Positions 27,001 through 30,000 of a stretch of DNA of 32,547 bases are shown here, piece after piece. The position numbers were made by a program. The stretch covers positions 1 through 32,547 of the IMG/VR virus record IMGVR_UViG_2718217787_000004; one strand, written 5' to 3'. The DNA comes from a virus (Duplodnaviria > Heunggongvirae > Uroviricota > Caudoviricetes). Every line of letters starts with the position of its first letter. Position 1 is the stretch's first letter.

Positions 27001-30000
27001 GAAACCCTCAAGGCCGGAAAACTGTATATCGACTACGACTATACACCGGTGCCTCCTCTTGAAAATCTGACCCTGCGCCAGCGTATTACCGATAAATACC
27101 TGGCAAATCTGGTCACCTCGGTTAACAGCAATTAAGGAGCCTGACCGATGGCAATGCCGCGCAAACTCAAGTTAATGAACGTCTTTCTGAACGGCTACAG
27201 CTATCAGGGCGTCGCGAAGTCCGTCACGCTACCAAAACTGACCCGTAAGCTCGAAAACTATCGCGGTGCGGGGATGAACGGCAGCGCACCGGTAGACCTC
27301 GGCCTTGATGACGATGCGCTGTCAATGGAGTGGTCGCTCGGTGGCTTCCCGGATTCGGTTATCTGGGAGCTTTACGCCGCAACCGGTGTGGATGCCGTAC
27401 CGATTCGTTTTGCAGGCTCTTACCAGCGCGACGATACCGGCGAAACGGTGGCCGTCGAGGTGGTCATGCGTGGACGTCAGAAAGAAATCGACACCGGCGA
27501 GGGCAAACAGGGAGAAGACACCGAGTCGAAAATCTCCGTGGTCTGCACCTATTTCCGGCTGACGATGGACGGTAAGGAGCTGGTCGAAATCGACACCATC
27601 AACATGATTGAGAAGGTGAACGGCGTCGACCGGCTGGAGCAACACCGTCGCAATATCGGCCTGTGATTTTCATCCGGTCAGCCTGGCTGACCGGTTAACC
27701 CCGATTCAGAAGTGAGAAAACCATGAACAAAGAAAACGTCATTACCCTGGACAAGCCGGTCAAACGTGGTGAGCAGGTTATCGAACAGGTCACGCTGATG
27801 AAACCTAATGCCGGGACGCTGCGCGGTGTCAGTCTGGCTGCGGTCGCAAACTCCGAAGTCGATGCACTGATTAAAGTGCTGCCGCGCATGACCGCACCGA
27901 TGCTGACCGAGCAGGAAGTCGCCGCGCTGGAACTGCCTGACCTTGTGGCGCTGGCCGGTAAGGTGGTCGGTTTTTTGTCGCCGAACTCGGTGCAGTGACG
28001 TTTCCGAAAAATCTCTCGGTCGATGATCTGATGGCGGATGTGGCAGTGATATTTCACTGGCCGCCATCAGAACTGTATCCCATGAGCCTGACCGAACTCA
28101 TCACATGGCGCGAAAAGGCGCTCCGGCGAAGCGGAAACACGAATGAGTAACAATGTAAAATTACAGGTATTGCTCAGGGCTGTTGACCAGGCATCCCGCC
28201 CGTTTAAATCCATCCGCACAGCGAGCAAGTCGCTGTCGGGGGATATCCGGGAAACACAAAAATCACTGCGCGAGCTGAACGGTCAGGCATCCCGTATTGA
28301 GGGGTTCCGCAAGACCAGTGCGCAGCTCGCCGTGACTGGTCAGGAACTGAAAAAAGCCAGACAGGAAGCCGCAGCACTGGCTGTCCAGTTTAAAAATACT
28401 GAACGACCAACAAATGCACAGGCAAAGGCAATGGAAGCCGCGCGTAAAAATGTGTCGGAGTTACAGGCGAAATATAACAGCCTGAGATTGTCGGTACAGC
28501 GCCAGCGTCAGGAACTGAGTCAGGCGGGTATTAATACCCGTAATCTGGCGCATGATGAACGAGGGCTGAAAAACCGTATCAGTGAAACCACCGTACAGCT
28601 TAACCGGCAGCGTGACGCGCTGGCGCGTGTCAGTGCGCAACAGGCAAAACTTAACGCAGTAAAACAGCGTTATCAGGCCGGAAAGGAACTGGCCGGAAAT
28701 ATGGCCTCAGTGGGCGCTGCCGGTGTGGGGATTGCTGCTGCGGGAACGATGGTCGGAGTTAAGCTGCTGATGCCCGGTTATGAGTTTGCGCAGAAAAACT
28801 CAGAATTGCAGGCCGTGCTAGGAGTGGCAAAAGACTCCGCCGAAATGACCGCACTACGCAAACAGGCGCGCCAGCTCGGCGACAATACCGCCGCCTCGGC
28901 GGATGATGCGGCCGGTGCACAGATAATCATCGCGAAAGCGGGTGGGGATGTTGATGCCATTCAGGCGGCAACGCCGGTCACGCTGAATATGGCGCTGGCG
29001 AACCGCCGCACGATGGAAGAAAACGCCGCCCTGCTGATGGGGATGAAATCCGCCTTTCAGCTTTCAAACGATAAGGTCGCTCATATCGGGGATGTTCTCT
29101 CCATGACGATGAACAAAACCGCCGCCGATTTTGACGGCATGAGCGATGCGCTGACCTATGCCGCACCTGTGGCAAAAAATGCCGGTGTCAGCATTGAAGA
29201 AACCGCCGCAATGGTCGGGGCGCTGCATGATGCAAAAATCACAGGCTCAATGGCGGGGACGGGAAGCCGTGCCGTGTTAAGCCGCCTGCAGGCACCGACG
29301 GGAAAAGCATGGGATGCACTCAAAGAGCTTGGAGTGAAAACCTCAGACAGCAAGGGAAACACCCGGCCAATATTTACCATTCTGAAAGAAATGCAGGCCA
29401 GTTTTGAGAAAAACCGGCTCGGTACTGCCCAGCAGGCTGAATACATGAAAACTATTTTCGGGGAGGAGGCCAGCTCAGCCGCCGCCGTGCTGATGACTGC
29501 CGCCTCAACCGGAAAGCTGGACAAACTGACCGCTGCGTTTAAAGCCTCAGACGGGAAGACCGCCGAGCTGGTAAATATCATGCAGGACAACCTAGGCGGT
29601 GACTTTAAAGAGTTTCAGTCCGCTTATGAGGCAGTGGGGACTGACCTGTTTGACCAGCAGGAAGGCGCGCTGCGTAAGCTCACGCAGACGGCCACAAAGT
29701 ATGTGTTAAAACTCGACGGCTGGATCCAGAAAAACAAATCACTGGCGTCAACCATCGGCATCATTGCCGGTGGCGCGCTGGCGCTGACTGGCATCATCGG
29801 TGCCATTGGCCTCGTAGCCTGGCCGGTTATCACCGGCATCAATGCCATCATCGCGGCAGCAGGCGCAATGGGGGCAGTCTTCACGACGGTTGGCAGTGCT
29901 GTTATGACCGCCATCGGGGCTATTAGCTGGCCGGTTGTGGTCGTGGTGGCCGCAATTGTCGCCGGGGCGTTGCTTATCCGTAAATACTGGGAGCCTGTCA

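Follow-up and report, generated by a model that had tools for sequence, protein, structure and literature searches.

The E/E' frameshift site of a P2-like Escherichia coli prophage and a candidate Shine-Dalgarno-like stimulator upstream of it

Genes E and E' belong to the tail operon of a P2-like Escherichia coli prophage, recovered as the IMG/VR virus record IMGVR_UViG_2718217787_000004 (Caudoviricetes), whose positions 1 to 32,547 we analysed and refer to as the window. We conclude that the E/E' locus is very probably the programmed -1 ribosomal frameshift of the P2 tail operon, a reading in which we include an inferred stimulator 5' of the slip site. The frameshift itself is correctly identified here and already known; it is ordinary textbook biology. 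We describe the anatomy of the site and its near-identity to P2, the coding status of the -1 frame, selection on the slippery heptamer at the nucleotide level and the lack of an independent start for E', and we present a sequence resembling a Shine-Dalgarno (SD) element that may act as the stimulator.

Anatomy of the slip site and its identity with P2

Direct reading of the window places the slippery heptamer TTTTTTG at 27971-27977, inside gene E, an open reading frame (ORF) of 91 amino acids (aa) at 27723-27998. The heptamer stands in canonical X_XXY_YYZ phase with E ((27971-27723) mod 3 = 2), the zero frame reading GGT TTT TTG, and is followed by six sense codons (TCG CCG AAC TCG GTG CAG) and the stop TGA at 27996-27998. 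Reading in the -1 frame after a slip would start at G27977 and run for exactly 57 codons (27977-28147) to the TAA at 28148-28150, which overlaps the ATG of gene T at 28143 (ATGAGTAA); the E+E' fusion would comprise 85 + 57 = 142 aa. The last -1-frame stop upstream is the TAA at 27959-27961, and the -1 frame is open from 27962, 37 nt before the end of E. An initial annotation, made from the sequence alone, had claimed this heptamer at 27971..27977, seven codons ahead of the E stop, with the -1 frame open for about 57 further codons to the TAA at 28148..28150 overlapping the start of T; all of this was confirmed, the distance of seven being correct when the stop is counted as the seventh codon. 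The features of the site, with the tape measure gene that follows it, are:

27723..27998, plus strand: gene E, the 91-aa tail assembly chaperone and zero-frame product (PF10109, PHROG 103, P2 identity)
27960..27969, plus strand: AAGGTGGTCG, an element complementary to the anti-SD sequence and forming the strongest anti-SD duplex in 27723-28150
27962..27998, plus strand: overlap zone of 37 nt in which the E and E' frames are both open (last -1 stop TAA 27959-27961)
27971..27977, plus strand: slippery heptamer T_TTT_TTG, the -1 shift site, in phase and homologous to the annotated P2 site
27977..28150, plus strand: E' segment of 57 codons plus TAA, the C-terminal domain of E+E' (PF06528, PHROG 1756)
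27995..27997, plus strand: GTG called by PGAP and gene callers as the start of a separate 51-aa 'GpE family' coding sequence (CDS), judged not real
28143..30590, plus strand: gene T, the tape measure protein (PF10145 PhageMin_Tail, 2.4e-45; PGAP 'phage tail tape measure protein')

The zero-frame product E matches the Pfam family PF10109 Phage_TAC_7, tail assembly chaperones 'E, or 41 or 14' (E-value 7.8e-13, 48.7 bits, cutoff 25), as well as PHROG 103 'tail' (3.4e-45). Residues 104-139 of the fusion match PF06528 Phage_P2_GpE (E-value 1.2e-21, 76.3 bits, cutoff 23), and the -1 extension matches PHROG 1756 (2.1e-26).

The E/E' stretch shows ~98% DNA identity to phage P2, with differences at 7 of 438 aligned positions and none in the heptamer and its flanks. 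The genes, the site, the heptamer, the 5' AAGGTGGTCGG, the 37-nt overlap, the product sizes and the overlap with T are the same in both. In the P2 record NC_001895 (P2p26/P2p25), E+E' is a two-piece CDS that 'shares amino terminus with gpE; -1 frameshift; essential tail protein', and the frameshift position annotated there is the base homologous to the site in the window. Literature on P2 describes a -1 shift at TTTTTTG, products of 91 aa (E) and 142 aa (E+E'), the lack of a hairpin downstream, an E' without a ribosome-binding site (RBS) and an E' frame that reaches 37 nt back into E; according to the record and the literature together, P2 produces the fusion protein and requires it. The P2 frameshift is also regarded in the literature as the counterpart of lambda G/GT, with an efficiency 2-3 times that of lambda G-T. 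Across 1.6 kb around the site, identity to Peduovirus records is 94-97%, and the window differs at 2 nt from the prophage that lies between yegR and yegQ in E. coli O157:H7 MB41-1 (NZ_CP039834.1). The locus is present in 1,546 of 5,426 complete E. coli genomes (~28%). Together, the matches to PF10109 and PF06528, the ~98% identity to P2 and the annotation of the P2 record support the earlier assignment of the locus to the conserved tail-chaperone frameshift of the P2 E/E' type.

The slip site is conserved at the nucleotide level

We compared 80 loci from diverse Enterobacterales, spanning 61-99% protein identity and chosen by E' peptide motifs rather than by the heptamer. An in-phase heptamer stands at the equivalent place in all 80, as T_TTT_TTG in 77 and T_TTT_TTA in 3; the T run is never longer, and the next base is always G or A. 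Among the 76 distinct sequences the codons of the heptamer are frozen (GGT at 75 of 75 Gly, TTT in 76 of 76, TTG in 73 and TTA in 3, never CTN), while other invariant residues in the same sequences use several codons. A scan along all 142 codons detected synonymous fixation only at codons 80-81, at codons 83-85 of the heptamer, at codons 86-89 of the overlap, where it is expected from dual coding, at His112 and at a few codons near the start of T. When the fusion was searched by tblastn, the match was split over two frames in 402 of 421 phage records. An in-phase heptamer is also present in each of 14 distant Peduoviridae (34-57% identity; hosts include Burkholderia, Ralstonia, Pseudomonas, Shewanella, Acidovorax, Aeromonas, Mannheimia and Klebsiella), T_TTT_TTG in 11 and, in the other 3, the different heptamers T_TTT_TTC, G_GGA_AAG and A_AAT_TTT.

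The heptamer by itself is unremarkable; the arrangement is what is special. On both strands of the window TTTTTTG occurs 19 times as against 8.8 +/- 2.9 expected, and the 45 annotated genes hold 41 in-phase X_XXY_YYZ heptamers, those of orf78 and orf82 likewise entering the frame of the downstream gene. Such numbers would fit a coincidence, in which a T-rich heptamer of a frequent kind falls by chance close to the E stop, and base composition accounts for the open -1 frame. A -1 frame open for at least 57 codons, however, is found at only 5.0% of 9,951 codon positions (median 9), a -1 ORF runs past the zero-frame stop at only 3 of the 41 in-phase heptamers, and the one at 27971-27977 is the sole member of the 41 that leads into sequence with a Pfam family of its own (PF06528). 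The match of the -1 extension to its own Pfam and PHROG families speaks against coincidence, as do the invariant heptamer and frozen synonymous sites in 80 loci, the two-frame architecture in 402 phage records and the experimental establishment of the frameshift in P2. The probability of a chance arrangement is thus practically nil, and the comparative sequence data can be taken to have refuted it already.

The sites in orf78 and orf82 are worth recording in their own right. In orf78 (3717-3887) the in-phase heptamer at 3842-3848 is A_AAA_AAG, which shifts more readily than any other in E. coli; it lies 12 codons before the stop, and its -1 frame is open into replication gene B, which starts at 3884; a slip there would give an Orf78-B fusion. 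P2 is identical at this site, and the 75 phage homologs, none below 90% identity, are too alike for a test of conservation. In orf82 (4974-5198) an in-phase A_AAA_AAC lies at ~5169-5175, 7 codons before the stop, with a -1 frame of 98 codons that is open into orf83, which starts at 5195. The ATGA-type overlap of the two genes probably accounts for this open -1 frame.

E' is not a separate gene

Current database entries would instead make E' a stand-alone gene, started from GTG 27995, overlapping the E stop as GTGA and coupled to E by termination and reinitiation. In NZ_CP039834.1, PGAP gives 27995-28150 a CDS of its own, a 'GpE family phage tail protein', many phage records carry a 'hypothetical protein' of their own at that place, and GTG 27995 does overlap the stop TGA of E. 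In 68 of 78 loci, however, the -1 frame contains neither ATG nor GTG nor TTG ahead of the conserved DDLMAD motif; GTG 27995 is shared by only two of the 78 (L005 and L064), and another that is 99% identical (L004) has TAA in place of TGA, and hence no GTG. Because a start codon for E' is not conserved and is mostly absent, independent initiation is untenable. In addition, E' of P2 is reported to have no RBS, initiation at a start of its own would leave the freezing of the heptamer at synonymous sites unexplained, and the P2 record annotates a fusion that shares the N terminus of E.

The predicted structure of the fusion points the same way. We modelled E+E' with AlphaFold2 on an alignment of 20 sequences, and the model is confident (pLDDT 85.6, pTM 0.73). 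The E part is predicted as a beta-hairpin and helices, one of which (residues 71-89) would run continuously through junction residue 85, and the E' part as a three-helix module joined via a short linker; a continuous helix across the junction argues against a separate E'. We consider a stand-alone E' gene extremely unlikely, and the GTG-started CDS of RefSeq and PGAP is, on comparison of these loci, a misannotation.

In Ralstonia phage RSY1, 'ORF30' (L087 249-719) is the -1-frame ORF read through E, despite the presence of GAGGTGACCGG-TTTTTTG, and is a related annotation error. With E' annotated as free-standing by RefSeq/PGAP and in several phage records, and with the error in RSY1, the essential 142-aa E+E' is missing from those proteomes. 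The finding that E' is not a separate gene is therefore useful as an annotation correction. The P2 record differs in this respect from RefSeq, which leaves the frameshift of the present prophage unannotated.

A Shine-Dalgarno-like element lies directly upstream of the heptamer

The sequence AAGGTGGTCG (27960-27969), formed by the AAG GTG region of codons 80-81, is complementary to the 3' end of 16S ribosomal RNA (rRNA). We scanned every 10-mer in 27723-28150 for pairing with the anti-SD sequence and found this one to be the strongest partner, at -12.8 kcal/mol as compared to a mean of -2.6 (standard deviation 2.2). The top anti-SD site lies at the matching position in 65 of 75 distinct homologs, and enterobacterial P2-like phages have a conserved AAGGUGRUC directly 5' of the slip site. 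Conservation here is at the level of codons: Lys80 is AAG in 98% and Val81 is GTG in 95%, the sole synonymously fixed codons in the part of E that is unique to it, whereas other Lys positions of E prefer AAA, and variants in which Lys80 is replaced by Gln or Glu (CAG, GAG) keep the AG.

The AGGTG at 27961-27965 sits 6 nt before T27972 and qualifies under the criterion of Sharma et al., in which AGGKG and GGNGG at 6-17 nt are experimentally stimulatory SD classes. Nine of 13 distant phages, as compared to 1.78 expected (Poisson-binomial P = 5.9e-6), carry a motif of a published class at 6-17 nt, the motifs differing and their spacings ranging from 6 to 14 nt; phages of Burkholderia, Ralstonia, Pseudomonas, Shewanella, Acidovorax and Mannheimia have GAGG, GGAG, AGGUG or GGNGG at 8-14 nt. 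Of 417 anti-SD positions, the best one is located directly 5' of the slip site in 7 of 14 distant phages, and one among the top 6 in 10 of 14.

These patterns of sequence conservation suggest that the SD-like element is probably a 5' stimulator of frameshifting of the dnaX and IS911 kind. A broader claim, that it is an undescribed and family-wide 5' stimulator of the tail-chaperone frameshift of Peduoviridae, we advance only tentatively, as a possibility with the odds somewhat against it. No description of an upstream SD-like element in P2 was found in the P2 and frameshift literature that we searched, a body of work outside which the primary papers lie (Christie et al., 2002; Xu et al., 2004).

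As in dnaX and in IS911 and the IS3 family, an internal SD-like sequence stands 5' of an X_XXY_YYZ heptamer, and here it is conserved at synonymous sites. The spacing differs, however, being 10 nt in dnaX and 6 nt here; the heptamer is U-rich and not A_AAA_AAG; there is no conserved 3' hairpin or pseudoknot; and stimulation is a prediction only. If correct, the proposal would explain how a weak U_UUU_UUG heptamer that has no 3' structure attains the comparatively high efficiency reported for P2, and the family would be the first among tail-chaperone frameshifts for which a dnaX/IS911-type stimulator is defined. Confirmation would be of modest value, as a handle on how the ratios of tail-chaperone frameshift products are set where RNA structures are absent, and the element would offer a simple feature for better frameshift predictors in P2-like phages and R-type tailocins.

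Downstream RNA structure

The 100 nt 3' of the heptamer have a folding energy of -40.1 kcal/mol (z = -3.6), most of which comes from a hairpin at 28027-28071, within the E' coding region, with the arms CTGATGGCGG...CCGCCATCAG and an inner GTGA/TCAC stem. This hairpin begins ~50 nt after the slip site and lies inside the most conserved protein motif (DDLMAD...HWPPSE). We found no conserved stem-loop or pseudoknot 5-9 nt after the heptamer, the covariation term of RNAalifold being -0.8 kcal/mol. Two-sided pair changes numbered 9, as compared to 7.1 +/- 1.5 in shuffled and 6-10 in slid controls, and thus gave no excess covariation; the sole covariation-like case in the hairpin is one swap of G-C to C-G in one clade. 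An Rfam scan of 27650-28250 returned only two sub-threshold chance matches.

We rejected the hairpin at 28027-28071 as a classical stimulator: it is too far away (~50 nt), it lies in the conserved motif and its covariation does not exceed that of the controls. It may be a by-product of the conserved DLMAD...HWPPS codons. A second candidate, a long-range helix predicted by RNAalifold between the SD-like region and the codons for DDL (columns 21-30 with 80-89), was likewise rejected, since the changes in it are almost all one-sided and the SD-like region would be inside the ribosome at the moment of the slip.

Proposed course of the slip

We propose that most ribosomes on E would read GGU UUU UUG UCG and end at the UGA at 27996, yielding the 91-aa E. 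A minority would slip back by one base, with tRNA-Phe and tRNA-Leu on U_UUU_UUG (27971-27977), and would then read the -1 frame from G27977 for 57 codons up to the UAA at 28148, yielding the 142-aa E+E'. The junction would be ...KVVGFL|VAELG..., and tandem slippage predicts the tryptic junction peptide VVGFLVAELGAVTFPK. During elongation the AAGGUGGUC element 5' of the heptamer would pair with the 3' end of 16S rRNA and so stimulate or tune the slip, and downstream RNA structure would not be required. By analogy to lambda gpG and gpGT, the N-terminal chaperone domain, which E and E+E' have in common, would coat the tape measure protein T, and the E' domain would be a module needed in sub-stoichiometric amounts to start polymerisation of the tube; the slip would set the ratio of E to E+E'.

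Several points weigh against this account. Production of E+E' in this prophage is inferred from P2. Four of the 13 distant phages do not have an SD motif of the published classes, and at 6 nt the motif of the window lies only just within the short limit of the interval published as stimulatory; in prfB, a short SD spacing goes with +1 rather than -1 shifting. The heptamer U_UU.U_UU.G was absent from the screen of Sharma et al. and from their efficient E. coli class, and with a heptamer of a weak class the fairly high efficiency of P2 is unexplained unless a stimulator exists. Finally, residue 85 differs between databases: it reads VVGFLVAELG in the protein of phage Wphi (P0002) and VVGFFVAELG in an NCBI E. 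coli protein (P0001), and the join in the P2 record implies GFLV. GFLV corresponds to tandem slippage after decoding of Leu, and GFFV to slippage in the P site only or to an extra U in the mRNA; as a consequence of this conflict, tandem and P-site-only slippage are not distinguishable here.

In a -1 shift by P-site-only slippage, peptidyl-tRNA-Phe would re-pair from UUU to the overlapping UUU with the A site empty, and the next tRNA would decode the -1-frame UUU as Phe, giving the junction GFFV and the predicted peptide VVGFFVAELGAVTFPK. The GFFV of the NCBI protein (P0001) would agree with this, experiments on a dnaX variant support slippage of a single tRNA (Atkins review), re-pairing of tRNA-Leu from UUG to UUU would leave a wobble mismatch, and in E. 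coli U_UU.U_UU.G does not rank among the motifs at which tandem slips are efficient. Against it, the seventh base is strictly G or A (Leu UUG or UUA) in 80 loci, the distant phages keep full heptamers and not tetramers only, which suggests that both codons matter, and the P2 and Wphi records have GFLV, although peptide sequencing is not known to underlie either database junction. On balance we consider P-site-only slippage unlikely.

The same Phe85 junction (GFFV) and the same predicted peptide would result from a change at the RNA level, in which slippage of RNA polymerase on the T6 run inserts an extra U. A homopolymer run does exist, the NCBI E. coli protein P0001 is written GFFV, and some Logan assemblies have variants in the length of the T run with fused ORFs. 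Bacterial cases of polymerase slippage, however, have been described for runs of ~9 A or T (Atkins review), and the run here is 6; in the 80 loci the run never lengthens and the following base is always G or A; and the distant heptamers G_GGA_AAG and A_AAT_TTT permit re-pairing of tRNAs and not slippage of the polymerase. The conserved element complementary to the anti-SD sequence points to the ribosome, the P2 study is titled, and the P2 record annotated, as a translational frameshift, and the Logan variants resemble homopolymer sequencing errors, one of them (P0012) having a second, compensating indel. Polymerase slippage is thus very unlikely.

Single-ORF E+E' sequences in Logan (P0012, P0014, P0016 and others) were considered as hard-wired fusions and rejected, their changes in T-run length being likely sequencing errors; the fused variants read GFFV or GF-V, or have a +1 stretch that another indel compensates. 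The copy of Candidatus Symbiopectobacterium endolongispinus (L077 1751-1990), in which the E' frame is further broken, looks like a pseudogene.

Relation to the tail chaperones of lambda and Mu

The initial annotation had also invoked the lambda G/GT arrangement, and this is supported by the position of E/E' upstream of the tape measure gene and by the literature that names the two as counterparts. Both systems lie between the genes for the major tail protein and the tape measure protein, both make a short product and a -1-extended one in a fixed ratio, and a common role as tape-measure chaperones is presumed. They differ in that similarity of sequence is undetectable and the Pfam families are different, and in that the P2 tail is contractile and the P2 efficiency is reported to be 2-3 times higher. 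The heptamer of lambda G/GT is G_GGA_AAG, differing from the T_TTT_TTG of the P2 type. The lambda pair is the subject of Levin et al. (1993) and Xu et al. (2004, 2013, 2014). The lambda chaperones bind the tape measure protein, with the extension binding the tube protein, and are absent from mature virions, as described in the literature. The likeness to lambda G/GT is one of position and logic, drawn by analogy, and not of demonstrable homology.

Neither a sequence search of the PDB nor a Foldseek search of it with E+E' returned anything significant. In the library of predicted viral structures BFVD, the best matches to the fusion model are small unnamed phage proteins (TM 0.80-0.82), and weaker named matches are the 'Tape measure chaperone' of Burkholderia phage Mica (E-value 4.9e-3), FS-gp41 of Mu (0.16) and GT of N15 (1.8). 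Mu gp41/FS-gp41 and other PF10109 chaperones have the same N-terminal Pfam family, the same frameshift-extended architecture and a weak structural match; Mu FS-gp41 differs in its distant sequence and in the family of its extension, and its Foldseek match (E-value 0.16) is not significant.

The surrounding operon and prophage

The operon order FI-FII-E-E'-T-U-D is present here, and the PGAP annotation shows an identical order; ogr is also among the neighbours of the E/E' locus. The other tail operon genes, FI, U and D having matching Pfam domains, are:

25945-27135: FI, the sheath
27148..27666, plus strand: FII, the tail tube protein (PF04985 Phage_tube, 2.3e-60), which as the neighbour upstream of E defines the conserved synteny
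30605-31084: U
31084-32247: D

The cytolethal distending toxin (CDT) type V genes cdtC, cdtB and cdtA lie on the minus strand at 7833-9975, between replication gene A and portal gene Q, which makes the element, located between yegR and yegQ, a CDT-converting prophage of the P2 type. Phage fiAA91-ss, which is among the phage matches to orf78, is named for comparison with the cdt-carrying prophage. The window thus differs from P2 in being a cdt-V prophage and in having an invertible tail-fibre segment in place of P2 Z/fun. This cassette, at 22494-25885, comprises H (a tail-collar fibre), G (Caudo_TAP) and the following parts:

24387-24839, minus strand: inverted alternative G'
24851-25264, minus strand: inverted alternative fibre C-terminus (Gp53-like_C)
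25286-25885: serine invertase (Resolvase and HTH_7)

The crossover site of the cassette is likely a 27-nt inverted repeat, with copies at 23308-23334 and 25210-25236.

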